Below the pieces are notes generated by a model. The model made no database searches and had not been told where the DNA came from. It was given only the letters and a program-made list of their open reading frames with translations. From Chrysomallon squamiferum (lineage: Eukaryota > Animalia > Mollusca): DNA of 64,000 nt. The DNA lies in the NCBI GenBank assembly GCA_012295275.1, contig CM022665.1, forward strand, positions 310,001 to 374,000. The letters run 5' to 3'. Of the stretch, positions 1 through 64,000 are shown piece by piece. Numbering within the stretch: position 1 is the stretch's first letter; each line of letters begins with the position of its first letter. Made by a program: the position numbers and the translations under genes.

Positions 1-36
1 TGACTCTGTTGATTTCCGTTTGTTCATGGGTTAAAC
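1..36 (-). CDS. 5' part of an 'exon A' cassette of a further IAP-cluster gene copy, running off the left edge
   Basis: Reverse complement reads tttctgaaattacag|gtttaacccatgaacaaacggaaatcaacagagtca = (G)LTHEQTEINRV; same acceptor and exon start as the A exons of the 46.7-62.8 kb array. Confidence 0.55.
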
Positions 37-12987: not shown

Positions 12988-13166
12988 TTAACACAAGAAA
13001 GCTCGCACAGTGGCTTGGATTATCTCTCTACAAAGTGGACATCTTCGCAGTCTGGACGCACCATCTTCACAGCAACAAAGATGACCGCAGGGCAGGAAAA
13101 CCATTCTGACCCTGTTTTCAAGACAAACTTTGCAGATCAGTGGACTGTTATCATCCGGCAAGGACT
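12988..13166 (-). pseudogene. Orphan terminal RING (C3HC4, IAP-type) exon
   Basis: tttaacag| phase 1, (E)SLPDDNSPLICKVCLENRVRMVFLPCGHLCCCEDGASRLRRCPLCREIIQATVRAFLC*; closely similar to 20145-20311; sixth Zn ligand is Gly; no BIR exon recognised upstream. Confidence 0.85.
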
Positions 13167-17550: not shown

Positions 17551-17709
17551 TCCATTGATATTCAATGATGTTTTCCAGGGAATAAATCAAATCATAAAAT
17601 CAAAACAAAACTATCAACATGTTTAACCTATAGTATTGTACGTTTATCAGACATAGAGAGTATTTTAAATTTTACATTAACTTTTTATCTTATAGACAAG
17701 TCAGCAATG

Positions 17710-18213
17710 AGAAGTGATGAGAGAGAACAGCTGAGAAGTGATAAAACGGAACAGCTGAGAAGAGATGAGACAGAACAGTTGAGAAGTAATGAGACAGAAC
17801 AGCTGAGAAGTGATAAGACAGAACAACTGAGAAGCAATGAGACAGAACAGCTGAGAAGTGAAGAGACAGAACAACTGAGAAGTGATGAGACAGAACAACT
17901 GAGAAGTGATAAAGCAGAGCAACAGAGAGGTAATGAGACAGAACAGTTGAGAAGTGAAGAGACAGAACAACTGAGAAGTGACGAGACAGAACAGCGGAGA
18001 AGTAATGAGAGAGAACAGTTGAGAAGTGATGAGACAAAACAACTGAGAAGTGACGAGACAGAACAGCGGAGAAGTAATGAGAGAGAACAGTTGAGAAGTG
18101 ATGAGACAGAGCAGTTGAGAAGAGATGAGACAAAACAACTGACAAGTGATGAGACACAAGAGTTGAGAAGTGATGAGACAGAACAGCTGAGATATGATGA
18201 AACAGGACAGTGG
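17710..18213 (+). repeat. Coding 24-bp minisatellite, 21 units, consensus RSDETEQL
   Basis: agaagtgatgagacagaacagytg repeated with no indels or stops in this frame. Confidence 0.95.
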
Positions 18214-19448
18214 AGAAGTTGTCGATATGATAACGCATTTACTCTAGAGAATCTGGCATATAATTATCAATTTAAATTGCGCGAATCCACCTGTGACAGG
18301 ACTTCAGACAGTAGCGAAGGAACTGAATCGGAAGATGCGAGCACTGGTTACAGTCAGTCAGAAGCTGCAACTATTGATATAAATGAATCAGAACTGATGA
18401 GTAGTGACATAACAGGATCGTTTTTTTTTTAAACAAGAGAAGTAATACATGGAGATATTTATGAGAATGAAGTAGAACAGGCGGGTTTCATGGAAACAGA
18501 ATCAGAAATTACTGATGATGAGAGAAATCAAACTGGAATGACGAGAAATGATGAATTAGGGACAGAACATTTACACACTGTCAGATACAGGAGGGAGTGG
18601 GACAGATATGCGTCTTAGTTACAATTTTCTCTAACCTCAGCCTGGCCAAGTCGTCTTGCAGCTGCTGGATTCTACTTTACTGGGACTGGTGATCGCGTTG
18701 TCTGCTTCAGCTGTGGTCAGAGCTATGATCAGTGGAGAGCCGCAGATAACCCAATGGAAATTCACAGACAAATCTCACCAAGCTGCAGATTTGTCCTGCG
18801 AGAGGAAGAAAATGAATCGATTAGGCTAAGTGATAATGATGAGCAGACTGTACAAGCATTCCTGGGCAGATTATCTGTACCAGTGTCGGAATCTTCTGCT
18901 ATTCAAAGTGAAACACTTCGTAATCGGAGCGAGTCTGAAAGTTCAGTTAGTGACAATGAACTGTTTGGAGTTTCTGAAACACCAAGAAATAACGTCGATA
19001 ACATCGTTACCTCTGTTGGTCATGAAAATATTGTCGTATCTGCCGTTAGTTTGACTGGTACTGTAGCATCAGCTACTAATACCAGCTGTATGCCTACATT
19101 TACTGGTAATATTTGTAGTATACCCTCATGCACTTTTTCATCTACATCTACTGTAGACCTGAGATAACCCAATGGAAATTCATGGACAAATCTCACCAAG
19201 CTGCAGATTTGTCCTGGGAGAGGAAGAAAGTGAACCGATTGGGCTAAGTGATAATGATGAGCAGAGACTACAAGAATTAAATCTGAAGAAACGAGTGGTG
19301 AATTTACTGACGCAAAAAATAGTACAAAGTGCGCATCTGAAGGTATATTGTAGTTTTATTTCACTACATTTTATTAATTTATTTATTTATTGATCTTGTT
19401 ATTACTATAGTTACATTATTGCTATATTTGTTCTTGTTCTCGTTGTTC

Positions 19449-19483
<35 letters not shown>

Positions 19484-19835
19484 ACCATTATTACGTTTTA
19501 TTAATTTATTTTCTATTTTTATTTATTTATTCAGTAATTCATTCATTCATTCATTTATTATGTTGTAACTATTGTTATGGTTGCTGTCATTAATGTTACT
19601 GGTGATGCTATTATCATCATCATCATCATCATCATCATTATTATTATTATTATTACCTGATACATTTCGATAACAAAAAGGTAACGTAAGGAAGAACGAA
19701 AGGTACAACATTTTAATAAATAGATAAAACATTTTGAAGAGTCAAAGTTACTTTTGTGATTGTGTCAAAGATTTTATACTTCAACGTATATAACTTTTTT
19801 ATAACTAAAGAAGTATTTGAAAAATTGTGTTGCAA

Positions 19836-19889
<54 letters not shown>

Positions 19890-20144
19890 CATAGAACTAA
19901 TTGTTTCAAACATTTTGTGTAGCAAAGTACACACATTAATATTATTATTATTATTAATATTATTATTATTACTTTAAAACGAATTTTCTTGTTTCAAAGT
20001 TTATATCCTTCAAACTATACAAATTGTTTGATTTTAAAACTATATTGTTTATTTTATTAGTTTCAAAATATACGTAATATTTGACGTACAAAATTATCTT
20101 ATTTTTATAACATACTTTTTGATATTTAATACATTCCTTCTCAG

Positions 20145-20311
20145 ATGACAATGAAGAATTCATCTGCAAAATTTGTCTTGAAAACAGGGTCAGAATAATG
20201 TTCCTACCCTGCGGTCATATTTGTTGCTGTGAAGATTGTACACCCAGACTGCGAAGATGTCCACTTTGTAGAGAGATAATCCAAGCCACTGTGCGAGCTT
20301 TCTTGTGTTAA
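20145..20311 (+). CDS. Terminal RING exon (IAP-type C3HC4), intact
   Basis: ccttctcag| phase 1, (D)DNEEFICKICLENRVRIMFLPCGHICCCEDCTPRLRRCPLCREIIQATVRAFLC*. Confidence 0.9.
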
Positions 20312-23195: not shown

Positions 23196-23249
<54 letters not shown>

Positions 23250-29797: not shown

Positions 29798-30570
29798 GTT
29801 TAATCCGTGAACTGATGAAAATCATGGTACAGAGAACTTGTTCGCCATTAAATGCACTTGAAAACATCAGAATAGAAGGTGCGGACAATAGAATTTTCTT
29901 TCTACAAATTTGTAAATTTAATAGTTATCGAAAGATGATGAAAGATAACATAAAGTTGTAACAAGGAAACACATTATTACACGATTAAACCTTAGTAGTT
30001 TAGTTTCATACCTTATGTAACAAGTTCATCACCTGTTTCATTTAAATAAAATTACTGAAAAATGCATTACCTGTTTCTAATGTAAAATCATAATAGTGTG
30101 ACGAACCACACTTCACAGATGTTAATTATTAAATGTTTGTTTTAATATCATGTTACTGAACTTACAGAGCCAAGTGATAAGCAGGTGAACATGACTGACA
30201 AGAACATTGAGTCGTCAGGTACTTTTTTACCTTGTTTAACGTAAATGATAAAATGATTGTCATAAAATTAATCTTCTAATCTCAGTGAGTGCTACATAAA
30301 TATAATGGGGAAGAAATAATTATTTTGTTAGAAACGTAAGGTGATGTTAATTTTTCACATTTTATTTGTATTCATTTTTCTGAAATTACAGGTTTAACCC
30401 GTGAACTACTGAAAATCATGCTTCAGAAAATTCGTTCTCTATTACATTCGGTTGGAAACATCACAATAGAAGGTATATAAAATTTAAATTTTATATATAT
30501 ACATATATATTATGTTTTTTTAAAGAATTCAAAATAATTAACCGATGTTTTTTTTTAATGTTAAAATTAC

Positions 30571-36133: not shown

Positions 36134-36175
<42 letters not shown>

Positions 36176-36366: not shown

Positions 36367-36399
<33 letters not shown>

Positions 36400-38926: not shown

Positions 38927-38961
<35 letters not shown>

Positions 38962-43204: not shown

Positions 43205-43249
<45 letters not shown>

Positions 43250-43876
43250 ACACACACACACAAATCACACACCCACACGAATACATGTCTAAAATCTTTA
43301 GCTTTTTGTTGCTAACATTATAAAATATTTCCGTATACTTCTTTTCTTTAGTGAATCTGAAACCTCTATTATGCCTGACAAGATTCAAATTAAAATATAT
43401 AGAAAATATTTGATTTAAAAAAAAAATTAAATTGTATTTAATTAGTTATTTTATTTAGTTTTGTTTGTTTATTTATATATCTTTCTGAATAAATTATATT
43501 TTATTGTAGTAAAAATGCATATATATATTTTTTAAATTTAAATTACAACTAAGTAAATGCAAATATTGTATGATTTTCCTCTTTTTGTATTTGATATAAA
43601 CGACAACCAAAAGGTTTACAAATAAAAATAAACGTTCTTGTATATTTTTTCCTATATGCTTGATATTAAAAACGTACCCAGATTTGAATAAATATTTTCT
43701 AAATCTTTTGTTATGATATTTTTCTACTGGGCGGTAACAAAAGTTGCTGTTAGGAAATAAAATAGTCTGAAAAAATAAAAATGTCGTGTTCAGTAGAATT
43801 ATATATTTGTATGTCATTTCCATCATCATCACCATCTTAATTATTATTATTGTTGCTGTTGTTGTTGTTGTTGCTG

Positions 43877-43908
<32 letters not shown>

Positions 43909-45394
43909 CTGAATTGTATATATGAATGTATGTACGTATGTATGTATATATGTATGTATGTATATATGTATGTATGTATGTATGTATTTATGTATGCATA
44001 AGTATATATGAATGTATGTACGTATGTATGTATGTGTGTATGTATGTATCTATGTTTGTATGTATGTATGTATGCATGAGTATATATGAATGTATGTACG
44101 TATGTATGTATGTGTGCTTGCGTGTGTGCTTGCGTGTGTGCATGCGTGCATGTATATGAATGTATGCATATTTATATGTATGTATTTGTGTGTGTGAATA
44201 TGTATGTTTGTATATATGAACGTATGTCTGTGTATAAATGCACGTACATATGTATGTTCCGATGTATGTATGTTTATGTGTATAGGCCTATGTATGTGCA
44301 TTTGTATGGATGAATGTATGTACGTACGTATGTATATATGTGCATGTATGTATATATTTAATATTCTAAATTACATGACCAAGCCAGATAACTTTATATG
44401 TTTGTTTGTTTGTTTGTTAAGATCAGATAACTTTTCAATGGAGTTTAATAGACAGTGCTCTGTGAACCACACCCCTGAAGCTACGACCTGGACTCGTGCG
44501 ATATTTGATGTACCTTCTTTGTTAAATAAGTAAAAAGAAAACATTAAGAAAAATAAAGAGTCTGTAAGCGGTATTAGTCTATAACTCAGAACATTTAGAA
44601 ATGTTACTAATGTGAATGAGAGCTTAAGTATATCTCAGTCTGTGTTTAAGAAAAAAAATAGAAAATATAAATAAAAAAATAAATAATGTTTGAGGCTAAG
44701 TTATAAGACTTTTGTCATTTTTTAATTTATTTGTTTCTTCTCCTTTTTATAAGAAACCTGTGATATTTTTCTACGGGGCGGTAACAAAAGCTTCTGTTAG
44801 ACACAATATAAACAGTTTACAGTTTTGCAAGTCTCCTCTGTGTTTTCAGAATATCGTCAATAATCTGTTTTTGGTATTGTGTCACCATTTAGATCAGTTT
44901 TATTCGTGTCAAAGTTGGTTTTATGGACAACGTACAGGAAAATCGAAAAATTCAAAATTAACCACATTTAACAGCAAGCGTATTCAAACAAAATAAATTG
45001 CAGTAACTGTAATATAAATAAAGATTAGTGTATTTTTCCTGTAATAAAAGTAATATATTTTAATATTATATTTTATGCGTGGCAAATTAGTCCACTGAGT
45101 ATAACGTACATGAAAATATTACAAATATTTATATTTGTTTATCAGAAAATCTTTCTAGATTTATGAAACGAGAGTTAAAGTAATAAAAATGGAATTATAA
45201 TAACAACATCTAGAAAATGTTTATTCAATTGTGAGTTCGTCTTATTAAGGCATAAGAAAGTTCACCATGTAAACAATATACCTAGTTGTAGTACTATTAA
45301 TATTTAGTTAACTAGGATATAAATAAATAAAATGAAGTGAAATGAAATGAAATAAAATAAAATAAAATGAGATTTTTCCGTATCAGTGGTTCAA

Positions 45395-45553
45395 TGGAAA
45401 GTCGCCATGTTTATGTCACTTTGTACACGTAATTTGAGTCACGTGATCGTTACCACGCAGAGACGACCTGTATGTTTTGTTTTCTCTTTTTAACATATTG
45501 ATGTGTTTGGGTCGTTCTTTACAGAAATAATTTGATTAGGAATTTGGGTAAGT
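45395..45553 (+). promoter_or_regulatory. Promoter-like module with candidate non-coding first-exon donor
   Basis: gtcgccatgttt (YY1-like) at 45401, gtcacgtgat (E-box) at 45438, gg|gtaagt at 45548. Confidence 0.35.
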
Positions 45554-46454
45554 CGATAAACATTGTAATAACAGTTTTCTATATCCAGTAATCAGATATT
45601 TATGTTTGTAAATACGCTGATTTTTTCAAACAGATTCTAACATTACTTCCTCTTTGTAAATTTTATATCAAATATTGAAGTGGTTTTATTCGATTCAAAC
45701 ACTCCAGTAAAATGGACATGGACCTTACATTTAGTTAAAGAGCTTATTAACATGACAGTTTATGAAATAATGATTACGTTTTAACCTGTTTTACCACATT
45801 CAGATAACAGAAAAAACGACCTTCCTTTGTATTTGTTACGAGCGACAACGAAAAGGTCACAAATATTGACCCGTTTGTGTCGCCCATTCTTGAATATCGT
45901 TTTCAGTAACAGTTAAAAGTTCATAGACTACGTGCTAAAACAAATATTTAAAATTATTAGTTTTGTGTTGCTTTATATTATAAAATATTTCCGTGTTTTA
46001 GTTTCTTTCTTTTTTTTTTTTCTTCTTCTTCTTTTTTTGGTTTCTTTATGAAACTGAAACTTGTATGAACGAAAATATTTCCGAGAATGTTCGAGAAGAC
46101 TTAACTGCCTGCAGTGGTAGTAGCTAGATTTGAATAAACATTAGTAGTTCTGTAAAAGATAAATTTGTTAGTTTAATGATTTCTTAACTGTGATGAAAGA
46201 ACACAACATTTTGTTTGATGTTTTAATTGATTGACTGAATGTTATCAGATTAAACTTTGGTAAAGTTCATACTTACATCAGACTACATGTATAGTACATG
46301 TTATTTTATTTCTTGAGGTCAGTAATCAATATAGAATCAGTTTGTCTACAAATTTAACACGTTCCAGTGTTTTATTAATAATTATACTCAAATTAAATTT
46401 ATTTAAATTTAGAAACTGCTTAAATTGTCAAAGTAAAAGACACAGTCAGAAAGA

Positions 46455-46491
46455 ATGAAGAGAAACTTGAATCTATTTATAGAGCAATCTG
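46455..46491 (+). CDS. Candidate first coding exon (MKRNLNLFIEQS), phase-1 donor
   Basis: Acceptor tttag| at 46411-46412, ATG at 46455, g|gtgcgt; phase matches downstream cassette exons. Confidence 0.3.
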
Positions 46492-47505
46492 GTGCGTAAC
46501 AGAGATTTTCCTTGTATTAACCTTTGTTACTTCAGTTTTATGTCTGATAACATCACACTTTATTTATTTGTATCTGGGATAATACGCATTAAATGTAAAT
46601 GAGCAGTACAATCATGAAAACGTAGATTATCAGAAGTATTAATTTCTGCGTGGTGTTTTAGAAAACAAAATATCGTCTCCAGATCACGAGATGAATCATC
46701 AATATATTAAGACATTTCATAAGCGTGGAGTTTCATTAATGTCCTGGTTTCGTTTTCAAATAGTTTTTCTGTCTGTGATTTTGTGCATTTTTATAATCTG
46801 AATGACTACTACATGAATATAATAGGTGAAAAAGAATTATTTTCTTACAAACGTTAGCTGATATTAATTTTACACATTTTATGTTTATCGATATTTCTGA
46901 AATTACAAATTGGAAGATGATGAAAGAACACAGACAGTAGTAAAAAATAAAAATATCGTTATATGATTAAACCTTGTTTGTTTAGTGTCATTCTTTATTT
47001 AACATGTGACGCTCGTTTTATTAAAACTTAATTTGCATGGTCACCCTCCGTAATGATGTCTGACTTGAGGGTATTCGTAAAGTTCTTGTTGTTTTTTTGT
47101 TTTTTTCTAATCTTTATTTTTATTTATTTGTTTGTTTATTTATTACTGTTATTATTATTAAAAGGAGCAGTATTTAATAGATCCGTAAGCTCTGTTTCTG
47201 ACAGTTATTTGCAGATACGGAGAAACACTTTTTGCATTTTGTATTGTAAGTGAAACGCGTACTCATCTGAGGAAAACGCTGAAATTTCTATCTCGATGTC
47301 GTCTGTGGATGCTTAGAACAATTCATCCTTACAACTCAAAATCTCGGTTCTAGATTGGCGAGAAAAATCACGAATATAACTGATCCTTTTAAAAAAAATT
47401 AGTGAAAACTGCATCGCCTATATCTAATGTAAAATCATAACAGTGTGACGAACCACACTTCACAGATGTTAATTTTAAAATGTTTGTTTTGATTTCATCT
47501 TACAG

Positions 47506-50500
47506 AACTTACAGAGCTAAGTGATAAGCAGGTGAAGATGATAAAGAGGATCTTACATCCTTTAGGTACTTTTACACCTTCTTGAACGTAACTTATAAAG
47601 TCACTGTCATATACTTAATCTACTGATGTTTTGTTTGGTAAACAACCTGTTTTTAAGTATTTATTTCTTAATCAATACCTGTAAAAAAAAAGAAATAATT
47701 GCCTGTACATCCAATTATTTAGTACGGCTATAAAATATTGATATATAGTAATTTCAGTAGCTGATAGAGCCCTATCCTGATTTTACCTCACTCATGCCTT
47801 TCAATGAATATACGAACATCAACATCTATTATTTATTTTAATTAGTGAACGTTTGTCAGTGATTTTGAATTATTGCAAGTCAGACAAATGTCTCCTTTAT
47901 TTCCTGGTTTTAAAAATTATCCCAAAAGATAAGCGTGGAGTTTCATTAATGTCCTGGTTTCGTTTTCAAATAGTTTTTCTGTCTGTGATTTTGTGCATTT
48001 TTTATAATCTGAATGACTACTACATGAATATAATAGGTGAAAAAATTATTTTCTTACAAACGTTAGCTGATATTAATTTTACACATTTTATGTTTATCCA
48101 TATTTCTGAAATTACAGGTTTAACCTATGAAACAACGGAAATCATGTGTCACAAAACTTGTTCAACTTTAAGTGAAGTTGAAAACAGCACAATAAAAGGT
48201 ATGTACAATTTAATTTGTTTTGTTTTTTTTACAATTTTTTAAATTAAATATTTTTGGAAGATGATGAAAGAACACAGACAGTAGTAAAAAATAAAAATAT
48301 CGTTATATGATTAAACCTTGTTTGTTTAGTGTCATTCTTTATGTAACATGTGACGCTCGTTTTATTAAAACGTAATTTGCATGGTCACCCTCCGTAATGA
48401 TGTCTGACTTGAGGGTATTCGTAAAGTTCTTGTTGTTTTTGTGTTTTTTTCTAATCTTTATTTTTATTTATTTGTTTGTTTGTTTATTTATTACTGTTAT
48501 TATTATTAAAAGGAGCAGTATTTAATAGATCCGTAAGCTCTGTTTCTGACAGTTATTTGCAGATACGGAGAAACACTTTTTGCATTTTGTATTGTAAGTG
48601 AAACGCGTACTCATCTGAGGAAAACACTGAAATTTCTATCTCGATGTCGTCTGTGGATGCTTAGAACAATTCGTCCTTACAACTCAAAATCTCGGTTCTA
48701 GATTGGCGAGAAAAATCACGAATATAACTGATCCTTTTAAACAAAATTAGTGAAAACTGCATCGCCTATATCTAATGTAAAATCATAACAGTGTGACGAA
48801 CCACACTTCACAGATGTTAATTTTAAAATGTTTGTTTTGATTTCATCTTACAGAACTTACAGAGCTAAGTGATAAGCAGGTGAAGATCATAAAGAGTAAC
48901 ATTCAGTCATCAGGTACTTTTACACCTTCTTGAACGTAACTTATAAAGTCACTGTCATATACTTAATCTACTGATGTTTTGTTTGGTAAACAACCTGTTT
49001 TTAAGTATTTATTTCTTAATCAATACCTGGAAAGCAAAGAAATAATTGCCTGTACATCCAATTATTTAGTACGGCTATAAAATATTGATATATAGTAATT
49101 TCAGTAGCTGATAGAGCCCTATCCTGATTTTACCTCACTCATGCCTTTCAATGAATATACGAACATCAACATCTATTATTTATTTTAATTAGTGAACGTT
49201 TGTCAGTGATTTTGAATTATTGCAAGTCAGACAAATGTCTCCTTTATTTCCTGGTTTTAAAAATTATCCCAAAAGATAAGCGTGGAGTTTCATTAATGTC
49301 CTGGTTTCGTTTTCAAATAGTTTTTCTGTCTGTGATTTTGTGCATTTTTATAATCTGAATGACTACTACATGAATATAATAGGTGAAAAAAAGAATTATT
49401 TTCTTACAAACGTTAGCTGATATTAATTTTACACATTTTATGTTTATCCATATTTCTGAAATTACAGGTTTAACCTATGAAACAACGGAAATCATGTGTC
49501 ACAAAAAACTTGTTCAACTTTAAGTGAAGTTGAAAACAGCACAATAAAAGGTATGTACAATTTAATTTGTTTTGTTTTTTTTTTACAATTTTTAAATTAA
49601 ATATTTTTGGAAGATGATGAAAGAACACAGACAGTAGTAAAAAAAAAAAATATCGTTATATGATTAAACCTTGTTTGTTTAGTGTCATTCTTTATGTAAC
49701 ATGTGACGCTCGTTTTATTAAAACGTAATTTGCATGGTCACCCTCCGTAATGATGTCTGACTTGAGGGTATTCGTAAAGTTCTTGTTGTTTTTGTGTTTT
49801 TTTCTAATCTTTATTTTTATTTATTTGTTTGTTTATTTATTACTGTTATTATTATTAAAAGGGAGCAGTATTTAATAGATCCGTAAGCTCTGTTTCTGAC
49901 AGTTATTTGCAGATACGGAGAAACACTTTTGCATTTTGTATTGAAAGTGAAACGCGTACTCATCTAAGGAAAACGCTGAAATTTCTATCTCGATGTCGTC
50001 TGTGGATGCTTAGAACAATTCATCCTTACAACTCAAAATCTCGGTTCTAGATTGGCGAGAAAAATCACGAATATAACTGATCCTTTTAAACAAAATTAGT
50101 GAAAACTGCATCGCCTATATCTAATGTAAAATCATAACAGTGTGACGAACCACACTTCACAGATGTTAATTTTAAAATGTTTGTTTTGATTTCATCTTAC
50201 AGAACTTACAGAGCTAAGTGATAAGCAGGTGAAGATGATAAAGAGGATCTTTCATGCTTTACGTACTTTTACACCTTCTTGAACGTAACTTATAAAGTCA
50301 CTGTCATATACTTAATCTACTGATGTTTTGTTTGGTAAACAACCTGTTTTTAAGTATTTATTTCTTAATCAATACCTGGAAAGCAAAGAAATAATTGCCT
50401 GTACATCCAATTATTTAGTACGGCTATAAAATATTGATATATAGTAATTTCAGTAGCTGATAGAGCCCTATCCTGATTTTACCTCACTCATGCCTTTCAA

Positions 50501-53500
50501 TGAATATACGAACATCAACATCTATTATTTATTTTAATTAGTGAACGTTTGTCAGTGATTTCGAATTATTGCAAGTCAGACAAATGTCTCCTTTATTTCC
50601 TGGTTTTAAAAATTATACCAAAAGATAAGCGTGGAGTTTCATTAATGTCCTGGTTTCGTTTTCAAATAGTTTTTCTGTCTGTGATTTTGTGCATTTTTAT
50701 AATCTGAATGACTACTACATGAATATAATAGGTGAAAAAATTATTTTCTTACAAACGTTAGCTGATATTAATTTTACACATTTTATGTTTATCCATATTT
50801 CTGAAATTACAGGTTTAACCTATGAAACAACGGAAATCATGTGTCACAAAACTTGTTCAACTTTAAGTGAAGTTGAAAACAGCACAATAAAAGGTATGTA
50901 CAATTTAATTTGTTTTGTTTTTTTTACAATTTTTTAAATTAAATATTTTTGGAAGATGATGAAAGAACACAGACAGTAGTAAAAAATAAAAATATCGTTA
51001 TATGATTAAACCTTGTTTGTTTAGTGTCATTCTTTATGTAACATGTGACGCTCGTTTTATTAAAACGTAATTTGCATGGTCACCCTCCGTAATGATGTCT
51101 GACTTGAGGGTATTCGTAAAGTTCTTGTTGTTTTTGTGTTTTTTTCTAATCTTTATTTTTATTTATTTGTTTGTTTATTTATTACTGTTATTATTATTAA
51201 AAGGAGCAGTATTTAATAGATCCGTAAGCTCTGTTTCTGACAGTTATTTGCAGATACGGAGAAACACTTTTTGCATTTTGTATTGAAAGTGAAACGCGTA
51301 CTCATCTAAGGAAAACGCTGAAATTTCTATCTCGATGTCGTCTGTGGATGCTTAGAACAATTCATCCTTACAACTCAAAATCTCGGTTCTAGATTGGCGA
51401 GAAAAATCACGAATATAACTGATCCTTTTAAACAAAATTAGTGAAAACTGCATCGCCTATATCTAATGTAAAATCATAACAGTGTGACGAACCACACTTC
51501 ACAGATGTTAATTTTAAAATGTTTGTTTTTGATTTCATCTTACAGAACTTACAGAGCTAAGTGATAAGCAGGTGAAGATGATAAAGAGGATCTTTCATGC
51601 TTTACGTACTTTTACACCTTCTTGAACGTAACTTATAAAGTCACTGTCATATACTTAATCTACTGATGTTTTGTTTGGTAAACAACCTGTTTTTAAGTAT
51701 TTATTTCTTAATCAATACCTGGAAAGCAAAGAAATAATTGCCTGTACATCCAATTATTTAGTACGGCTATAAAATATTGATATATAGTAATTTCAGTAGC
51801 TGATAGAGCCCTATCCTGATTTTACCTCCTCATGCCTTTCAATGAATATACGAACATCAACATCTATTATTTATTTTAATTAGTGAACGTTTGTCAGTGA
51901 TTTCGAATTATTGCAAGTCAGACAAATGTCTCCTTTATTTCCTGGTTTTAAAAATTATCCCAAAAGATAAGCGTGGAGTTTCATTAATGTCCTGGTTTCG
52001 TTTTCAAATAGTTTTTCTGTCTGTGATTTTGTGCATTTTTATAATCTGAATGACTACTACATGAATATAATAGGTGAAAAATTATTTTCTTACAAACGTT
52101 AGCTGATATTAATTTTACACATTTTATGTTTTCCATATTTCTGAAATTACAGGTTTAACCTATGAAACAACGGAAATCATGGCACAAAAACTTGTTCCAC
52201 TTTAAAGTGAAGTTGAAAACAGCACAATAAAAGGTATGTACAATTTAATTTGTTTTGTTTTTTTTACAATTTTTTAAATTAAATATTTTTGGAAGATGAT
52301 GAAAGAACACAGACAGTAGTAAAAAATAAAAATATCTTATTACATGATTAAACCTTGTTTGTTTAGTGTCATTCTTTATGTAACACGTCACGCTCGTTTT
52401 ATTAAAACGTAATTTGCATAGTCCCTCCGTAATGATGTCTGACTTGAGGGTATTCGTAAAGTTCTTGTTGTTTTTGTGTTTTTTTCTAATCTTTATTTTT
52501 ATTTATTTGTTTGTTTATTTATTACTGTTATTATTATTAAATGGGCACCATTTAATATATCCGTAAGCTCTGTTTCTGACAGTCATTTGCAGATACGGAG
52601 AAACGCTTTTTGCATTTTGTATTGTAAGTGAAACGGGTACTCATCTAAGGAAAACGCTGAAATTTGTACCTCGATGTCGTCTGTCGATTCTTAGAACAAC
52701 TCATCCTCACAACTCATAATCTAGATTTTAGATTGGCGAGATAAATCATGAATATAATTGATCCTTTTAAACAAAATTACTGAAAACTGCATCGCCTATA
52801 TCTAATGTAAAATCATAACAGTGTGACGAACCACACTTCACAGATGTTAATTTTTAAATGTTTGTTTTAATTTCATCTTACAGAACTTAAAGAGCTAAGT
52901 GATAAGCAGGTGAAGATGATAAAGAGGATCTTTCAGCCTTTAGGTACTTTTACACGTTCTTGAACCTAACTTATCAAGTGATTGTCATGTATTTAATCTT
53001 CTGTACTTTTATGTGGTAAAGAACTCTGTTTTATTCTTTATCAACAATACCTGTGAAGCAAAGAAATAATTGCCTATACATTCACTTATTTAGTACGCAA
53101 TATAATATTGATATATCGTAATTTCAGTAGCTCACAGGACCCTACCCTGATTTTACCTCACTCATACCTTGCAATTAATATACGAACGTCAACATCTATT
53201 GTTTATTTTAATTAGTGAATGTTTGTCAGTGATTTGGAATTATTGCAAGTGAGACAAATTTCCCTTCGTTTCCCAGTTTTAAGAATTATCCCAAAAGATA
53301 AGCGTGGAGTTTCATTAATGTCCTGGTTTCGTTTTCAAATAGTTTATCTGTCTGTGACTTTGTGCATTTTTATAATCTGAATGACAACTACATGAATATA
53401 TTACATGAATAATTACTTTCTTATAAACGTTAGCTGATGTTAATTTTACACATTTTATGTTTTCTGTATTTCTGAAATTACAGGTTTAACCTATGAACTA

Positions 53501-56500
53501 ACGGAAATCATGGCACAGAAAACTTGTCCCACATTAAGCACAATAAAAGGTATGTACAATTTAATTTATTTTGTTTTTACAATTTTGTAAATTTAGTAAT
53601 TTTGGAAAGATGATGAAAGAACACAGAAAGTAGTAAAAAATAAATATATTATTACATGATTAAACCTTCTTAGATTAGAGTCATGCTTTATGTAACACGT
53701 CGCGCTCGTTTTATTAAAATCTAATTTGGGTAGTCCCCCTCCATAATGTCTGACTTGAGGGTATCCGTAAAGTTCTTGGTTTTTTGTGTTTTAATTGTTT
53801 GTTTGTTTATTATTGTTATTATTAAAATGGGCACCATTTGATATATCCGTATGCTGTTTTTCTGACAGTTATTTGCAGATACGGAGAAACGCTTTTTGCA
53901 TTTTGTATTGTAAGTGAAACGGGTACTCATCTAAGGAAAACGCTGAAATTTCTACCTCGATGTCGTCTGTCGATTCTTACAACAACTCATCCTCACAACT
54001 CATAATCTAGATTTTAGATTGGCGAGATAAATCATGAATATAATTGATCCTTTTAAACAAAATTACTGAAAACTGCATCGCCTATATCTAATGTAAAATC
54101 ATAACAGTGTGACGAACCACACTTCACAGATGTTAATTTTTAAATGTTTGTTTTAATTTCATCTTACAGAACTTAAAGAGCTAAGTGATAAGCAGGTGAA
54201 GATGATAAAGAGGATCTTTCAGCCTTTAGGTACTTTTACACGTTATTGAACCTAACTTATCAAGTGATTGTCATGTATTTAATCTTCTGTACTTTTATGT
54301 GGTAAAGAACTCTGTTTTATTCTTTATCAACAATACCTGTGAAGCAAAGAAATAATTGCCTATACATTCACTTATTTAGTACGCAATATAATATTGATAT
54401 ATCGTAATTTCAGTAGCTCACAGGACCCTACCCTGATTTTACCTCACTCATACCTTGCAATTAATATACGAACGTCAACATCTATTGTTTATTTTAATTA
54501 GTGAATGTTTGTCAGTGATTTGGAATTATTGCAAGTGAGACAAATTTCCCCTTCGTTTCCCAGTTGTAAGAATTATCCCAAAAGATAAGCGTGGAGTTTC
54601 ATTAATGTCCTGGTTTCGTTTTCAAATAGTTTATCTGTCTGTGACTTTGTGCATTTTATAATCTGAATGACAACTACATGAATATATTACATGAATAATT
54701 ACTTTCTTATAAACGTTAGCTGATGTTAATTTTACACATTTTATGTTTTCTGTATTTCTGAAATTACAGGTTTAACCTATGAACTAACGGAAATCATGGC
54801 ACAGAAAACTTGTCCCACATTAAGCACAATAAAAGGTATGTACAATTTAATTTATTTTGTTTTTACAATTTTGTAAATTTAGTAATTTTGGAAAGATGAT
54901 GAAAGAACACAGAAAGTAGTAAAAAATAAATATATTATTACATGATTAAACCTTCTTAGATTAGAGTCATGCTTTATGTAACACGTCACGCTCGTTTTAT
55001 TAAAATCTAATTTGGGTAGTCCCCCTCCATAATGTCTGACTTGAGGGTATCCGTAAAGTTCTTGGTTTTTTGTGTTTTAATTGTTTGTTTGTTTATTATT
55101 GTTATTATTAAAATGGGCACTATTTCATATATCCGTAAGCTGTGTTTCTGACTATTATTTGCAGATACGAAGAAACGCTTTTTGCATTTTGTATTCTAAG
55201 TGAAACGGGTACTCATCTAAGGAAAACGCTGAAATTTCTACCTCGATGTCGTCTGTCGATTCTTAGAACAACTCATCCTCACAACTCATAATCTAGATTT
55301 CAGATGGGCGAGATAAATCATGAATATAATTGATCCTTTTAAACAAAATTACTGAAAACTGCATCGCCTATATCTAATGTAAAATCATAACAGTGTGACG
55401 AACCACACTTCACAGATGTCAATTTTTAAATGTTTGTTTTAATTTCATCTTACAGAACTTAAAGAGCTAAGTGATAAGCAGGTGAAGATGATAAAGAGGA
55501 TCTTTCAGCCTTTAGGTACTTTTACACGTTATTGAACCTAACTTATCAAGTGATTGTCATGTATTTAATCTTCTGTACTTTTATGTGGTAAAGAACTCTG
55601 TTTTATTCTTTATCAACAATACCTGTGAAGCAAAGAAATAATTGCCTATACATTCACTTATTTAGTACGCAATATAATATTGATATATCGTAATTTCAGT
55701 AGCTCACAGGACCCTACCCTGATTTTACCTCACTCATACCTTGCAATTAATATACGAACGTCAACATCTATTGTTTATTTTAATTAGTGAATGTTTGTCA
55801 GTGATTTGGAATTATTGCAAGTGAGACAAATTTCCCCTTCGTTTCCCAGTTTTAAGAATTATCCCAAAAGATAAGCGTGGAGTTTCATTAATGTCCTGGT
55901 TTCGTTTTCAAATAGTTTATCTGTCTGTGACTTTGTGCATTTTTATAATCTGAATGACAACTACATGAATATATTACATGAATAATTACTTTCTTATAAA
56001 CGTTAGCTGATGTTCATTTTACACATTTTATGTTTTCTGTATTTCTGAAATTACAGGTTTAACCTATGAACTAACGGAAATCATGGCACAGAAAACTTGT
56101 CCCACATTAAGCACAATAAAAGGTATGTACAATTTAATTTATTTTTGTTTTTACAATTTTGTAAATTTAGTAATTTTGGAAAGATGATGAAAGAACACAG
56201 AAAGTAGTAAAAAATAAATATATTATTACATGATTAAACCTTCTTAGATTAGAGTCATGCTTTATGTAACACGTCGCGCTCGTTTTATTAAAATCTAATT
56301 TGGGTAGTCCCCCTCCATAATGTCTGACTTGAGGGTATCCGTAAAGTTCTTGGTTTTTTGTGTTTTAATTGTTTGTTTGTTTATTATTGTTATTATTAAA
56401 ATGGGCACCATTTGATATATCCGTATGCTGTTTTTCTGACAGTTATTTGCAGATACGAAGAAACGCTTTTGCATTTTGTATTGTAAGTGAAACGGGTACT

Positions 56501-59500
56501 CATCTAAGGAAAACGCTGAAATTTCTACCTCGATGTCGTCTGTCGATTCTTACAACAACTCATCCTCACAACTCATAATCTAGATTTTAGATTGGCGAGA
56601 TAAATCATGAATATAATTGATCCTTTTAAACAAAATTACTGAAAACTGCATCGCCTATATCTAATGTAAAATCATAACAGTGTGACGAACCACACTTCAC
56701 AGATGTCAATTTTTAAATGTTTGTTTTAATTTCATCTTACAGAACTTAAAGAGCTAAGTGATAAGCAGGTGAAGATGATAAAGAGGATCTTTCAGCCTTT
56801 AGGTACTTTTACACGTTCGTGAACCTAACTTACCAAGCGATTGTCATATATTTAATCTTCTGTACGTTTATGTGGTAAAGAACTCTGTTTTATTCTTTAT
56901 CAACAATACCTGTGAAGCAAAGAAGTAATTGCCTATACATTCACTTATTTAGTATGCAATATAATATTGATATATCGTAATTTCAGTAGCTCACACGAGC
57001 CTACCCTGATTTTACCTCACTCATACCTTTCAATTAATATACGAACGTCAACATCTATTGTTCATTTTAATTAGTGAATGTTTGTCAGTGATTTGGAATT
57101 ATTGCAAGTGAGACAAATTTCCCCTTCGTTTCCCAGTTTTAAGAATTATCCCAAAAGATAAGCGTGGAGTTTCATTAATGTCCTGGTTTCGTTTTCAAAT
57201 AGTTTATCTGTCTGTGACTTTGTGCATTTTTATAATCTGAATGACAACTACATGAATATATTACATGAATAATTACTTTCTTATAAACGTTAGCTGATGT
57301 TCATTTTACACATTTTATGTTTTCTGTATTTCTGAAATTACAGGTTTAACCTATGAACTAACGGAAATCATGGCACAGAAAACTTGTCCCACATTAAGCA
57401 CAATAAAAGGTATGTACAATTTAATTTATTTTTGTTTTTACAATTTTGTAAATTTAGTGATTTTGGAAAGATGATGAAAGAACACAGAAAGTAGTAAAAA
57501 ATAAATATATTATTACATGATTAAACCTTCTTAGATTAGAGTCATGCTTTATGTAACACGTCGCGCTCGTTTTATTAAAATCTAATTTGGGTAGTCCCCC
57601 TCCATAATGTCTGACTTGAGGGTATCCGTAAAGTTCTTGGTTTTTTGTGTTTTAATTGTTTGTTTGTTTATTATTGTTATTATTAAAATGGGCACCATTT
57701 GATATATCCGTATGCTGTTTTTCTGACAGTTATTTGCAGATACGGAGAAACGCTTTTTGCATTTTGTATTGTAAGTGAAACGGGTACTCATCTAAGGAAA
57801 ACGCTGAAATTTCTACCTCGATGTCGTCTGTCGATTCTTAGAACAACTCATCCTCACAACTCATAATCTAGATTTTAGATTGGCGAGATAAATCATGAAT
57901 ATAATTGATCCTTTTAAACAAAATTACTGAAAACTGCATCGCCTATATCTAATGTAAAATCATAACAGTGTGACGAACCACACTTCACAGATGTCAATTT
58001 TTAAATGTTTGTTTTAATTTCATCTTACAGAACTTAAAGAGCTAAGTGATAAGCAGGTGAAGATGATAAAGAGGATCTTTCAGCCTTTAGGTACTTTTAC
58101 ACGTTCGTGAACCTAACTTATCAAGCGATTGTCATATATTTAATCTTCTGTACTTTTATGTGGTAAAGAACTCTGTTTTATTCTTTATCAACAATACCTG
58201 TGAAGCAAAAAGAAATAATTGCCTATACATTCACTTATTTAGTATGCAATATAATATTGATATATCGTAATTTCAGTAGCTCACACGAGCCTACCCTGAT
58301 TTTACCTCACTCATACCTTTCAATTAATATACGAACGTCAACATCTATTGTTTATTTTAATTAGTGAATGTTTGTCAGTGATTTGGAATTATTGCAAGTG
58401 AGACAAATTTCCCCTTCGTTTCCCAGTTTTAAGAATTATCCCAAAAGATAAGCGTGGAGTTTCATTAATGTCCTGGTTTCGTTTTCAAATAGTTTATCTG
58501 TCTGTGACTTTGTGCATTTTTATAATCTGAATGACAACTACATGAATATATTACATGAATAATTACTTTCTTATAAACGTTAGCTGATGTTAATTTTACA
58601 CATTTTATGTTTTCTGTATTTCTGAAATTACAGGTTTAACCTATGAACTAACGGAAATCATGGCACAGAAAACTTGTCCCACATTAAGCACAATAAAAGG
58701 TATGTACAATTTAATTTATTTTTGTTTTTACAATTTTGTAAATTTAGTAATTTTGGAAAGATGATGAAAGAACACAGAAAGTAGTAAAAAATAAATATAT
58801 TATTACATGATTAAACCTTCTTAGATTAGAGTCATGCTTTATGTAACACGTCACGCTCGTTTTATTAAAATCTAATTTGGGTAGTCCCCCTCCATAATGT
58901 CTGACTTGAGGGTATCCGTAAAGTTCTTGGTTTTTTGTGTTTTAATTGTTTGTTTGTTTATTATTGTTATTATTAAAATGGGCACCATTTGATATATCCG
59001 TATGCTGTTTTTCTGACAGTTATTTGCAGATACGGAGAAACGCTTTTTGCATTTTGTATTGTAAGTGAAACGGGTACTCATCTAAGGAAAACGCTGAAAT
59101 TTCTACCTCGATGTCGTCTGTCGATTCTTAGAACAACTCATCCTCACAACTCATAATCTAGATTTTAGATTGGCGAGATAAATCATGAATATAATTGATC
59201 CTTTTAAACAAAATTACTGAAAACTGCATCGCCTATATCTAATGTAAAATCATAACAGTGTGACGAACCACACTTCACAGATGTCAATTTTTAAATGTTT
59301 GTTTAATTTCATCTTACAGAACTTAAAGAGCTAAGTGATAAGCAGGTGAAGATGATAAAGAGGATCTTTCAGCCTTTAGGTACTTTTACACGTTCGTGAA
59401 CCTAACTTACCAAGCGATTGTCATATATTTAATCTTCTGTACGTTTATGTGGTAAAGAACTCTGTTTTATTCTTTATCAACAATACCTGTGAAGCAAAGA

Positions 59501-61953
59501 AATAATTGCCTATACATTCACTTATTTAGTACGCAATATAATATTGATATATCGTAATTTCAGTAGCTCACACGAGCCTACCCTGATTTTACCTCACTCA
59601 TACCTTTCAATTAATATACGAACGTCAACATCTATTGTTCATTTTAATTAGTGAATGTTTGTCAGTGATTTGGAATTATTGCAAGTGAGACAAATTTCCC
59701 CTTCGTTTCCCAGTTTTAAGAATTATCCCAAAAGATAAGCGTGGAGTTTCATTAATGTCCTGGTTTCGTTTTCAAATAGTTTATCTGTCTGTGACTTTGT
59801 GCATTTTTATAATCTGAATGACAACTACATGAATATATTACATGAATAATTACTTTCTTATAAACGTTAGCTGATGTTAATTTTACACATTTTATGTTTT
59901 CTGTATTTCTGAAATTACAGGTTTAACCTATGAACTAACGGAAATCATGGCACAGAAAACTTGTCCCACATTAAGCACAATAAAAGGTATGTACAATTTA
60001 ATTTATTTTGTTTTTACAATTTTGTAAATTTAGTAATTTTGGAAAGATGATGAAAGAACACAGAAAGTAGTAAAAAATAAATATATTATTACATGATTAA
60101 ACCTTCTTAGATTAGAGTCATGCTTTATGTAACACGTCACGCTCGTTTTATTAAAATCTAATTTGGGTAGTCCCCCTCCATAATGTCTGACTTGAGGGTA
60201 TCCGTAAAGTTCTTGGTTTTTTGTGTTTTAATTGTTTGTTTGTTTATTATTGTTATTATTAAAATGGGCACCATTTAATATATCCGTATGCTGTTTTTCT
60301 GAAAGTTATTTGCAGATACGGAGAAACGCTTTTTCCATTTTGTATTGTAAGTGAAACGGGTACTCATCTAAGGAAAACGCTGAAATTTCTACCTCGATGT
60401 CGTCTGTCGATTCTTACAACAACTCATCCTCACAACTCATAATCTAGATTTTAGATGGGCGAGATAAATCATGAATATAATTGATCCTTTTAAACAAAAT
60501 TACTGAAAACTGCATCGCCTATATCTAATGTAAAATCATAACAGTGTGACGAACCACACTTCACAGATGTCAATTTTTAAATGTTTGTTTTAATTTCATC
60601 TTACAGAACTTAAAGAGCTAAGTGATAAGCAGGTGAAGATGATAAAGAGGATCTTTCAGCCTTTAGGTACTTTTACACGTTCTTGAACCTAACTTATCAA
60701 GTGATTGTCATGTATTTAATCTTCTGTACTTTTATGTGGTAAAGAACTCTGTTTTATTCTTTATCAACAATACCTGTGAAGCAAAGAAATAATTGCCTAT
60801 ACATTCACTTATTTAGTACGCAATATAATATTGATATATCGTAATTTCAGTAGCTCACACGAGCCTACCCTGATTTTACCTCACTCATACCTTTCAATTA
60901 ATATACGAACGTCAACATCTATTGTTTATTTTAATTAGTGAATGTTTGTCAGTGATTTGGAATTATTGCAAGTGAGACAAATTTCCCCTTCGTTTCCCAG
61001 TTTTAAGAATTATCCCAAAAGATAAGCGTGGAGTTTCATTAATGTCCTGGTTTCGTTTTCAAATAGTTTATCTGTCTGTGACTTTGTGCATTTTTATAAT
61101 CTGAATGACAACTACATGAATATATTACATGAATAATTACTTTCTTATAAACGTTAGCTGATGTTAATTTTACACATTTTATGTTTTCTGTATTTCTGAA
61201 ATTACAGGTTTAACCTATGAACTAACGGAAATCATGGCACAGAAAACTTGTCCCACATTAAGCACAATAAAAGGTATGTACAATTTAATTTATTTTGTTT
61301 TTACAATTTTGTAAATTTAGTAATTTTGGAAAGATGATGAAAGAACACAGAAAGTAGTAAAAAATAAATATATTATTACATGATTAAACCTTCTTAGATT
61401 AGAGTCATGCTTTATGTTACACGTCACGCTCGTTTTATTAAAACCTAATTTGGGTAGTCCCCCTCCATAATGTCTGACTTGAGGGTATCCGTAAAGTTCT
61501 TGGTTTTTTGTGTTTTAATTGTTTGTTTGTTTATTATTGTTATTATTAAAATGGGCACCATTTAATATATCCGTATGCTGTTTTTCTGAAAGTTATTTGC
61601 AGATACGGAGAAACGCTTTTTCCATTTTGTATTGTAAGTGAAACGCGTACTCGTCTAAGGAAAACGCTGAAATTTCTACCTCGATGTCGTCTGTCGATTC
61701 TTAGAACAACTCATCCTCACAACTCATAATCTAGATTTTAGATGGGCGAGATAAATCATGAATATAATTGATCCTTTTAAACAAAATTACTGAAAACTGC
61801 ATCGCCTATATCTAATGTAAAATCATAACAGTGTGACGAACCACACTTCACAGATGTCAATTTTTAAATGTTTGTTTTAATTTCATCTTACAGAACTTAA
61901 AGAGCTAAGTGATAAGCAGGTGAAGATGATAAAGAGGATCTTTCAGCCTTTAG
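47506..61953 (+). CDS. Twelve 60-nt 'B' exons (starts 47506, 48854, 50203, 51546, 52884, 54170, 55456, 56743, 58031, 59320, 60607, 61894)
   Basis: tttcatcttacag|aactt...|gtactt; phase 1/1; all open, e.g. (E)LKELSDKQVKMIKRIFQPL. Confidence 0.65.
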
Positions 61954-62547
61954 GTACTTTTACACGTTCTTGAACCTAACTTATCAAGTGATTGTCATGA
62001 ATTTAATCTTCTGTACTTTTATGTGGTAAAGAACTCTGTTTTATTCTTTATCAACAATACCTGTGAAGCAAAGAAGTAATTCACTTATTTAGTACGCAAT
62101 AAAATATTGACATATCGTAATTTCAGTGTCTCACAGGACCCTACCCTGATTTTACTACACTCATACCTTTCAATTAATATACAAACGTCAACATCTATTG
62201 TTTATTTTAATTAGTGAATGTTTGTCAGTGATTTGGGATTATTGCAAGTGAGACAAATTTCCCCTTCGTTTCCCAGTTTTAAGAATTATCCCAAAAGATA
62301 AGCGTGGAGTTTCATTAATGTCCTGGTTTCGTTTTCAAATAGTTTATCTGTCTGTGAGTGTGCATTTTTATAATCTGAATGACAACTACATAAATATATT
62401 ACATTAATAATTACTTTCTCATAAACGTTAGCTGATGTTAATTTTACACATTTTATGTTTTCTGTATTTCTGAAATTACAGGTTTAACCTATGAACTAAC
62501 GGAAATCATGGCACAGAAAACTTGTCCCACATTAAGCACAATAAAAG
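48118..62547 (+). CDS. Twelve 'A' exons (81-83 nt: 48118, 49468, 50813, 52153; 66 nt: 53484, 54770, 56057, 57344, 58634, 59921, 61208, 62482)
   Basis: tttctgaaattacag|gtttaacc...ataaaag|gtatgt; phase 1/1; (G)LTYETTEIMCHKTCSTLSEVENSTIK or (G)LTYELTEIMAQKTCPTLSTIK; copies at 49468 and 52153 have homopolymer indels. Confidence 0.7.
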
Positions 62548-63407
62548 GTATGTACAATTTAATTTATTTTGTTTTTACAATTTTGTAAATTTAGTAATTT
62601 TGGAAAGATGATGAAAGAACACAGAAAGTAGTAAAAAATAAATATATTATTACATGATTAAACCTTCTTAGATTAGAGTCATGCTTTATGTAACACGTCA
62701 CGCTCGTTTTATTAAAACCTAATTTGGGTATTCGTCATCATCCGTAATGACTTTTGACTTGAGGGTTTTCGTAAATTTGTTGTTGTTTTTCTAAACTTTA
62801 TATATATATATATATATGTATATTTTTATATTTAATTTTTTTTTTAATTTCTGTTCGTTCAATAATTTTGTATCTACGATTAAAGATCACAGTGTTTGTA
62901 TTTGAAATATTATTTTTTAATAAAATGATTATAATGAGAATAAACTTTGTTAATTTTGTTTCATGTCTTCGACAATTTATTTATTAATAAGAAGATAATT
63001 ATCTAAGTCTTACTTTGGATCTTGAACAGTTTTATTTTTTGCCTCTCGTCTATTTTCTGCTTAACTGACTATTCCTGACGTTCTCATGTACTCTGATGAA
63101 TGCTACTTCTTTAGAAGAGAAATAATTTTTCTATCTTCTTGTTGTAAAAAATCATTTAAAACATAAACGCTTAATTTTCTATCTGAAAATGATCTGCGAA
63201 TGAAAAATGTTTTCAAGATTGTAAATGAAATTTAAAATGAACATCCATCTTAAAATGAACTTCCTTACCACTGATATTCAATGATGTTTTCCAGGGAATA
63301 AATCATATAAAATGAAAACAAAACTCTCAACATGATTAACCTATAGTTTGTAAGTCTATCAGACACACAGAATATTTTAAATTTTACATAAATGTTTTAT
63401 CTTATAG

Positions 63408-64000
63408 ACACGTCAGCAATGAGAAGTGATGAGAGAGAACAGCTGAGAAGTGATGAGAGAGAACAGTTGAGAAGTGATGAGAGAGAACAGAGTAGAAGTG
63501 ATGAGAGAGAACAGTTGAGAAGTGATGAGACAGAACAGTGGAGAAGTGATCAAAGAGAACAGCTGAGAAGTGATGAGAGAGAACAGTTGAGAAGTGATGA
63601 GACAGAACAACTGAGAAGTGATGAGATAGAACAGCTGAGAAGTGATGCGATAGAACAGTTGAGAAGTGATGAGACAGAACAGTTGAGAAGTGATGAGACA
63701 GAACAGTTGAGAAGTGATGAGACAGAACAGGTGAGAAATGATGAGACAGAACAGCTGAGAAGTGATGAGATAGAACAGCTGAGAAGTGATGAAATAGAAC
63801 AGTTGAGAAGTGATGAGACAGAACAGTTGAGAAGTGATGAGACAGAACAGTGGAGAAGTGATGAGACAGAACAGTTGAGAAGTGATGAGACAGAACAGTT
63901 GAGAAGTGATGAGACAGAACAGTGGAGAAGTGATGAGACAGAACAGTTGAGAAGTGATGAGAGAGAACAGTTGAGAAGTGATGAGACAGAACAGTGGAGA
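63408..64000 (+). CDS. Start of the large IAP-type exon (RSDETEQL repeat, about 24 units so far), open to the window edge
   Basis: ttttatcttatag|ac acg tca gca atg aga agt gat...; paralogous to 17696 onward, including intron 63268-63407 vs 17552-17695; phase-1 acceptor; BIR/RING expected beyond the window. Confidence 0.8.

Follow-up and report, generated by a model that had tools for sequence, protein, structure and literature searches.

The primate LPA gene holds a homogenised tandem array of the two-exon kringle IV-2 unit, which varies in copy number. The array described here resembles it in being a homogenised two-exon tandem array, but LPA encodes a secreted protein of known fold and has a larger unit. 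In NBPF genes, likewise, the Olduvai (DUF1220) repeat is encoded by two exons, the first of them small, and the unit has multiplied by tandem duplication within the gene (PMC9313022; here and below, published systems are described from parts of the cited papers). The present array shares the two-exon unit and this mode of multiplication, but NBPF units, of about 1.6 kb, lie in primate genes without BIR or RING, whereas here a repeat of 42–47 amino acids stands before a likely E3 ligase; a sequence relation between the two is not expected. In the LRR arrays of brown-algal ROCO genes, small exons of the same phase, each encoding one motif of a known ligand-binding fold, lie in tandem and diversify, with splice variants and positively selected sites shown (PMC11378527). 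Same-phase small exons in tandem are common to both, but our unit is a doublet, most of its copies are identical, its repeat belongs to no known family, and its clear splice joints all alternate.

Molluscan IAP genes have multiplied through tandem and segmental duplications accompanied by loss of domains, and the covered parts of the surveys describe their diversity in terms of BIR and RING number, UBA and death-like domains, and not of small-exon arrays (PMC13159474, PMC7831173, PMC8917759). The BIR-RING paralogue in the window shares with these expansions a BIR, a RING and a low-complexity repeat ahead of BIR1, but two Gigantopelta aegis proteins contain nothing like exons A and B of the array. 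We found no IAP whose N-terminal part is encoded by small exons repeated in this way in the literature searched, including the portions covered of molluscan and metazoan IAP surveys, whose supplements may list such proteins.

Organisation and splicing of the exon array

The window, the 64,000-nucleotide stretch analysed here, contains 12 tandem units at 46722–62830 on the forward strand, with a period of 1286–1349 nt and the order intron-B-intron-A; a partial unit with a deleted A precedes them (Table 1). An initial annotation had described 24 exons in units of about 1.3 kb, with B exons of 60 nt and A exons of 81 or 66 nt, all in phase 1/1. The units and the 12 B exons (60 nt, from 47506 to 61894) agree with this description, as do 11 of the 12 A exons (three of 81 nt and eight of 66 nt); the remaining A, at 49468, measures 83 nt, leaving 23 of 24 exons symmetric. 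A CAG acceptor and a GT donor are present at all 24, with TAC preceding the donor GT in two B exons (50203 and 51546), and the exon A acceptor motif occurs 15 times compared with none in 100 shuffles.

Table 1. Features of the array and of related gene copies in the window.
Feature	Positions	Strand	Details
Four older-type units	47506..52233	+	B at 47506, 48854, 50203, 51546; long A at 48118, 49468, 50813, 52153
Frame-breaking A exon, 83 nt	49468..49550	+	Sits at A homopolymer
A exon, 81 nt, internal stop	52153..52233	+	The two length differences are at A runs
Eight young units (B 60 nt, A 66 nt)	52884..62547	+	Units 96.5–99.7% identical
Last-unit exon B	61894..61953	+	B-to-A joint in RNA contigs, 3/3 runs
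Last-unit exon A	62482..62547	+	Exact match in one X3 contig; A-to-B joint in 2/3 runs
Exon R	63408..64000	+	Phase-1 acceptor, in-frame ATG 63419, open to window end
Candidate promoter or non-coding first exon module (inferred)	45380..45559	+	Donor-like site near 45548
Paralogue without A/B exons	17696..20311	+	R repeats, type I-like BIR, partial second BIR copy, RING exon 20145–20311
Diverged A-B-A copy	29798..30472	+	All three exons open; B acceptor non-canonical
A copy start, fourth gene copy leaving window	1..36	-	Only acceptor visible
Orphan intact RING exon, same family	12988..13166	-	BIR not found upstream on the same strand

The older-type units are 97.6–99.1% identical to one another and about 89% identical to the young type, in which all eight A exons are identical, as are all eight B exons. 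The whole array thus has two open A types and four B types, and with 8/12 A and 8/12 B exons identical its exon diversity is low and falls short of that of the ROCO arrays. In units 6–12 none of the 126 exon columns is variable, against 54 events in the 1136 others, although 34 of 1262 shifted placements are as invariant as the exons.

Exons of the kind found in the array are spliced B-A-B-A in RNA. The RNA contigs come from three runs (X1, X2 and X3) of one study, and because only 20 of 203 aligned contigs are at least 99% alike, most of this evidence derives from paralogues or alleles. The predicted junctions were recovered at GT..AG sites: B to A (61951/62480, cut +2) occurs in X1, X2 and X3, and two runs, X1 and X3, also contain the joint from the 66-nt A to B (62545 back to 61892). 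Long-A variants are joined to B in four more contigs, three with the 81-nt length and one shorter by 1 nt, so that A-B joints occur in all three runs, and at least five exon A variants are seen in RNA. Such joints at the unit exon borders rule out non-coding satellite DNA, and the two-exon unit, its conserved introns and its splicing in order are those of an intragenic tandem exon-doublet array. RNA contigs also cover the intron bins of the array; bins 63062–63401 have no contig cover, which proves nothing. We set aside depth differences between exons and introns, contig depth being no basis for ranking the parts of a gene.

Phase 1 is open in 22 of the 24 exons, including all 12 B exons; this confirms an earlier count, most of which does not represent independent observations since the eight young A and eight young B exons are each identical. 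Stops interrupt two of the three reading frames of the B-A unit; the remaining frame, which has none, is in the phase of the acceptor at 63408. In-frame ATGs are present in both exons, and indels mostly keep the frame (15 nt between the A lengths; a deletion of 3 nt in B in RNA from X1 and X3). Two old A exons, at 49468 and 52153, break the frame; they are either homopolymer assembly errors or real lesions that would need skipping. An N-terminal region of about 520 amino acids, as first proposed, includes both and is not open as assembled under constitutive splicing; the 22 open exons together encode 470 amino acids, and the young units in order (B5 to A12) encode 336.

Exon R and neighbouring IAP gene copies

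Exon R contains 24 copies of an acidic 8-residue repeat (24-nt unit) and is open for 197 codons. A single-sequence model of the repeats gives one long helix (pLDDT 90.6, pTM 0.33; weak evidence), and we rejected a Gp5_trimer_C match (E 1.9e-10), which likely reflects shared 8-residue periodicity, the model being all helix. The segment 63268–63931 is 87% identical to 17552–18219, which spans the pre-BIR exon and intron end of the paralogue, and the paralogue shares the ATG of exon R at 63419. The proposal that this paralogue leads into a BIR and a RING holds for the sequences but not for an open frame. The BIR (PF00653, 67.6 bits) lies behind two stops; its zinc ligands C-x2-C-x16-H-x6-C, at 18619, were found in this paralogue only, and H77/I80/S81/C84 fits a type I-like BIR as defined in the part of PMC8917759 consulted. 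The RING (PF13920, 52.6 bits) is C3HC4, C-terminal and in the last exon, and the orphan exon at 13166 likewise carries a RING of this kind. With three stops, at 18430–32, 18616–18 and 19165–67, the paralogue is likely a pseudogene. The unique stretch after its R repeats yielded no relatives among longer proteins and no P0003 match beyond the BIR edge.

The diverged copies, thought to retain both splice sites and frame, do so in part: the A-B-A copy is open, but its B exon at 30159 has TG in place of the acceptor AG (the following AG, 9 nt later, is in frame), and the copy at 1–36 can be judged by its acceptor alone. Behind the A-B-A copy, R and BIR are absent, and we found only fragments like the 3' flank of the paralogue (31055–31152) and the pre-R intron (33011–33562). 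Upstream of the copy at 1–36, positions 110–3067 are an inverted duplicate of 43754–46722 (99.2%). The candidate upstream module also lies upstream of the three other gene copies, yet it is repeated further times in the window; 62830–63407 has no copy of it.

The nearest relatives are the G. aegis IAPs XP_041379548.1 and XP_041350670.1 (BIR 54–56% identical over the aligned part, RING 65–73%), which also carry a low-complexity repeat just before BIR1. Exons A and B gave no significant match to these two proteins (best p 0.042 of 12 tests), and a profile of four A peptides found no credible homologue among 1.84 billion proteins, its sole match, a 2205-amino-acid DUF11 repeat protein with a 13-residue stretch six times, being rejected as chance. 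The ESM Atlas, searched with one A exon frame, returned an unnamed protein as its best score (0.87) and no lead, exact-pattern scans of metagenome contigs returned 0 loci, and an ICAM_N match to exon A (E 0.033, under the cut-off) was rejected.

A gene model and its alternatives

The locus is best read as part of a gastropod IAP cluster with rapid turnover, in which an exon doublet was recently duplicated in tandem within a gene and its copies homogenised, with a length-variable N-terminal arm as a likely outcome. More specifically, and with about even confidence, we suggest that a gastropod BIR-RING IAP gene has the array as its 5' coding part. Unequal crossing-over would have expanded the array recently, and gene conversion would have homogenised its units. 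Transcription would begin at the module at about 45400, translation at the in-frame ATG of the first B exon (47538) or nearby, and the last A would be spliced onto the exon at 63408. The array would then likely give an IAP a long repetitive front end, its own BIR and RING lying past 64000, and the product would comprise n repeats of 42 or 47 amino acids, a rod of acidic 8-residue repeats, a type I-like BIR and a RING E3. This arm would most likely serve the ligase as a spacer or a multivalent binding surface, constrained in frame and little in amino acids. With both exons in phase 1/1, a unit can be gained or lost without a change of frame, and variation would therefore most likely take the form of copy number and of sequence differences between alleles or paralogues.

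The model draws on the spliced joints at predicted sites, one B-to-R contig, the 87% identity around exon R, and an upstream module that precedes all four gene copies and is lacking from 62830–63407; the single stop-free frame in the phase of 63408, the mostly frame-keeping indels, the invariant young exons and the pre-BIR1 repeat of G. aegis also favour it. The identification as an IAP/RING E3 is likely by homology of exon R and the upstream module to the BIR-RING paralogue, and the proposed in-frame joint of the last A to 63408 agrees in phase, but no such joint is among those listed in the three runs. This weakens the model, as do the two broken old A exons, the broken and truncated comparable neighbours (17696 and 29798), the want of a credible A/B homologue, and the substitutions between diverged A copies, where five of six pairs have a pN similar to or higher than pS.

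Several of these points would also fit a decaying duplicate, in which the A/B exons of the family are real and the array is a satellite-like by-product of amplification, transcribed but yielding no full protein. Half of the old A exons break the frame, one neighbour is a pseudogene with three stops and another is truncated, pN is not below pS among the diverged A copies, and few RNA contigs match the array copy at 99%. We regard this as unlikely, since both lesions lie at A runs, like 10 of 20 between-unit indels and as assembly errors would, the young exons are invariant, exon R stays open and the 66-nt A has an exact match in an X3 contig.

Rather less likely, in our estimate, is an undescribed N-terminal recognition arm on snail IAP ligases, built from a shuffled, diversifying exon doublet of 42–47 amino acids whose length is tuned by copy number and skipping: an immune-receptor-like variable region, possibly tied to host-tissue microbes. 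It is suggested by exons that diverge faster than introns with the frame kept (57/222 against 66/361 differences, Fisher p 0.037, a comparison biased by the choice of introns) and by the A variants in RNA.

Regulated or stochastic skipping of exon subsets, giving many IAP isoforms of differing length and sequence, is doubtful. The exons are short and nearly all symmetric, real lesions would require skipping for an open frame, and brown-algal ROCO genes do so according to the part of PMC11378527 covered. Two joints are skip-like, one in an X2 contig from the end of B to the R repeats (61954 to 63420, side 31; 85% likeness) and one in an X3 contig from A back to A, but both contain unassigned letters, and the A-A contig has the depth of an A-B contig (11.2), so a diverged exon may lie between. 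Every well-defined joint alternates, and two sets of identical exons account for 16 of the 24; the suggestion that any subset could be skipped to give combinatorial sequence isoforms is thus not borne out, and skipping young units would alter length only, since all eight encode identical peptides.

It is similarly doubtful that translation of the IAP starts at ATG 63419 and leaves out the A/B exons, these being leader exons at the 5' end or a small repeat gene of their own. The paralogue has that ATG without A/B exons, the G. aegis relatives have no A/B match and no A-to-R joint is among those listed, but the frame-keeping lengths and indels, the stop-free frame in phase with R, the ATGs in both exons and the B-to-R contig argue for translation. 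Copy number inflated by assembly over a true gene of few units, as young units up to 99.7% identical might suggest, is highly improbable given that every unit differs from all others, that shared substitutions form mosaic patterns and that the two classes differ by about 11%.

Significance for IAP genes

A block that a repeat masker would treat as "satellite" is an expressed exon array, and annotations probably miss or truncate genes of this kind. If the BIR-RING link is true, this would be an IAP architecture not found in the covered parts of surveys of molluscan and metazoan IAPs, and an invertebrate NBPF-like amplification of an exon doublet caught in two rounds, with an old unit of 47 and a young unit of 42 amino acids. 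Should the arm prove to be diversifying, it would place a variable region on an intracellular regulator of apoptosis and NF-kB.

Exon structure and reading frame of the array

The array (see table; window GC about 28%, one gap of 200 bases) is a real, spliced exon array with a unit period of 1286–1349 nt. Each of its 12 units has a B exon of 60 nt, all open, and an A exon; the A lengths are, in order, 81, 83, 81 and 81 nt (units 1–4, the old class), followed by eight of 66 nt (units 5–12, the young class, whose A exons are all identical, as are its B exons). The initial annotation counted 22 of 24 exons as open, and we find the same, the two exceptions being A exons. As assembled, no continuous reading frame runs through all 24 exons; the open exons sum to 470 aa, and units 5–12 alone to 336 aa. 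We also note at 46065–46116 a short frame that opens with ATG and has a weak donor in phase 1; it is a possible first coding exon, and its ATG reads ACG in the copy near 29680.

Features of the array and related copies (window positions)
Feature	Position	Location or relation
Array	46722–62830	
R exon (acidic 8-residue repeats)	63408–64000	after array
A exon, frame shift, 83 nt	49468	at a run of adenines
A exon, internal stop, 81 nt	52153	at a run of adenines
Upstream module	45380	before array
Upstream module	29177	before copy at 29798
Upstream module	1447	before minus-strand copy
Upstream module, degenerate	15277	before paralogue
Diverged A-B-A copy	29798–30472 (+)	
Paralogue	17696–20311 (+)	R, BIR, RING
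Paralogue stops	18430–32, 18616–18, 19165–67	
Inverted duplicate	110–3067 vs 43754–46722	adjoining array, 99.2%
Inverted duplicate	4120–8654 vs 38611–43162	farther out, ~91%
Third copy of this sequence	24167–28600	

Just one of the three frames of a B-A unit is stop-free, and it is in phase with the R acceptor at 63408 and its ATG at 63419. Among units 6–12, 0 of 126 exon columns vary, compared with 54 events in 1136 other columns, and 34 of 1262 shifted placements are likewise without variation (p about 0.03). Amino acids are not conserved between diverged copies (pN 0.20–0.35 versus pS 0.17–0.22, five pairs); the comparison of old with young A is the only one in which pN falls below pS (0.12 versus 0.28). 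The diverged copy has no gaps in its exons, and these differ more than the adjoining introns do (Fisher p 0.037, biased in that the intron pieces were picked by similarity). Under simulated neutral change of 14%, A stays open 51% of the time and B 63%, so one copy being open says little by itself, and moderate evidence comes only from the set as a whole. That the array belongs to a decaying copy is unlikely, and is the strongest of the alternatives.

RNA joints

Three RNA runs from a single study (X1, X2 and X3) each match part of 61430–64000; at 85% likeness, 203 contigs aligned to 61430–63467, 20 of these at least 99% alike. A B-to-A joint removing 528 nt with GT..AG ends is present in all three runs, and in X1 and X3 the 66-nt A is joined at its end to the beginning of B, the form that an A-to-next-B splice takes when mapped on one unit. 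One X3 contig matches the 66-nt A with zero differences. Longer A variants joined to B occur in four further contigs (two each from X2 and X3), three at the 81-nt exon length and one a base short, and X1 and X3 contigs have a 3-nt deletion inside B. The contigs are uninformative on strand, level and whole transcripts, and their joints may derive from spliced retrocopies in DNA.

The last A had been proposed to join the acceptor at 63408; no such joint is listed for any of the three runs among these aligned contigs, which counts against the proposal. In one X2 contig the end of B is joined to R repeats, and one alignment row of X3 runs from A to A again; in each case the letters in between are unknown and may hide a diverged exon, so the combinatorial skipping also proposed is unproven. 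A true cassette system is improbable, and untranslated or separate exons are marginally more so.

Probable relationship to IAP genes

The segment 63268–63931 is 87% identical to 17552–18219, intron end included. Downstream of the latter, the paralogue has a BIR (67.6 bits), an intron and a RING (52.6 bits), with zinc ligands intact and a BIR signature that is type I-like by the definition in the available text of PMC8917759. The initial annotation had it leading into both domains, and both are matched; three stops interrupt the frame, so the paralogue is likely a pseudogene. The second half of the BIR is duplicated within it (18740–18850 and 19160–19270), which ends its frame. An orphan intact RING exon at 12988–13166 (-) lies in an inverted repeat with the paralogue RING region (12608–13303 versus 19989–20662, 74%). 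At 22229–23450 (+), 3' of the paralogue RING, several short exon-like pieces have splice-like borders by eye (e.g. near 22229–22301 and 22786–22857), perhaps fragments of another gene.

The diverged copy is followed by fragments resembling the paralogue 3' flank and the pre-R intron. Also 3' of it, a strong donor CAG/GTAAGT (cut after CAG) at 30697–30729 marks a possible extra small exon, and a similar piece lies at 30945–31040. From the R and intron-end identity, the common upstream module, these fragments and the one B-to-R contig, the array, paralogue and other copies are likely one gene family, consisting of the module, optional A/B units, R, BIR and RING. The upstream module, a candidate promoter or first-exon element, has no copy within 62830–63407 and recurs at about ten other places in the window, so we only infer that it acts as a promoter. 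Upstream regions in 24167–46000 are made of many 300–500-nt modules about 70% alike, among them repeats of the candidate promoter module that carry a TCACGTGA motif; these modules stem either from old tandem duplication or from a dispersed element.

Among the best ten relatives of the paralogue BIR region, Branchiostoma is first by E-value, Gigantopelta aegis ranks second and third (54–56% over the BIR) and Haliotis is last; the RING exons are 65–73% identical to a G. aegis protein versus 46–47% to Branchiostoma. These matches make it likely that the host is a gastropod. In the G. aegis relatives a low-complexity repeat precedes BIR1, as the R repeats precede the paralogue BIR; they contain no A/B match, and searches with the A peptide gave no credible homologue. 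LPA KIV-2 has a comparable gene architecture. Others are already described, in the portions consulted, for NBPF/Olduvai exon doublets (PMC9313022) and brown-algal ROCO LRR exons (PMC11378527). That molluscan IAPs have undergone expansion, segmental duplication and loss of domains is well described in the available text of PMC13159474, PMC7831173 and PMC8917759, the last also describing oyster splice variants differing in domains; neither in the same text nor in literature searches did we find an IAP whose N terminus is encoded by an array of small repeated exons.

Array growth and the predicted product

Unit identity is about 89% between the old and young classes and 96.5–99.7% inside a class. 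No two units are identical, which argues against simple assembly duplication, and an assembly artefact is very unlikely. A large inverted duplication relates 1–11800 (minus) to about 34500–46722 (plus). The young units share substitutions in a mosaic pattern, and the 99.2% identical inverted duplicate adjoining the array has its edge inside a unit; these observations suggest that exchange between copies is ongoing. The array probably arose in two amplification rounds by unequal crossing-over, and phase 1/1 exons allow gain or loss of units without damage to the frame.

In the product, the repeat arm would be followed by an acidic rod, then by a type I-like BIR and finally by a RING E3; a single-sequence model weakly suggests that the rod is one long helix. 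The array gene probably represents a new variant of IAP architecture, and the reading we consider most likely, at about an even chance, is that its repeat arm serves as a spacer or as a multivalent binding surface and differs between alleles and between paralogues.
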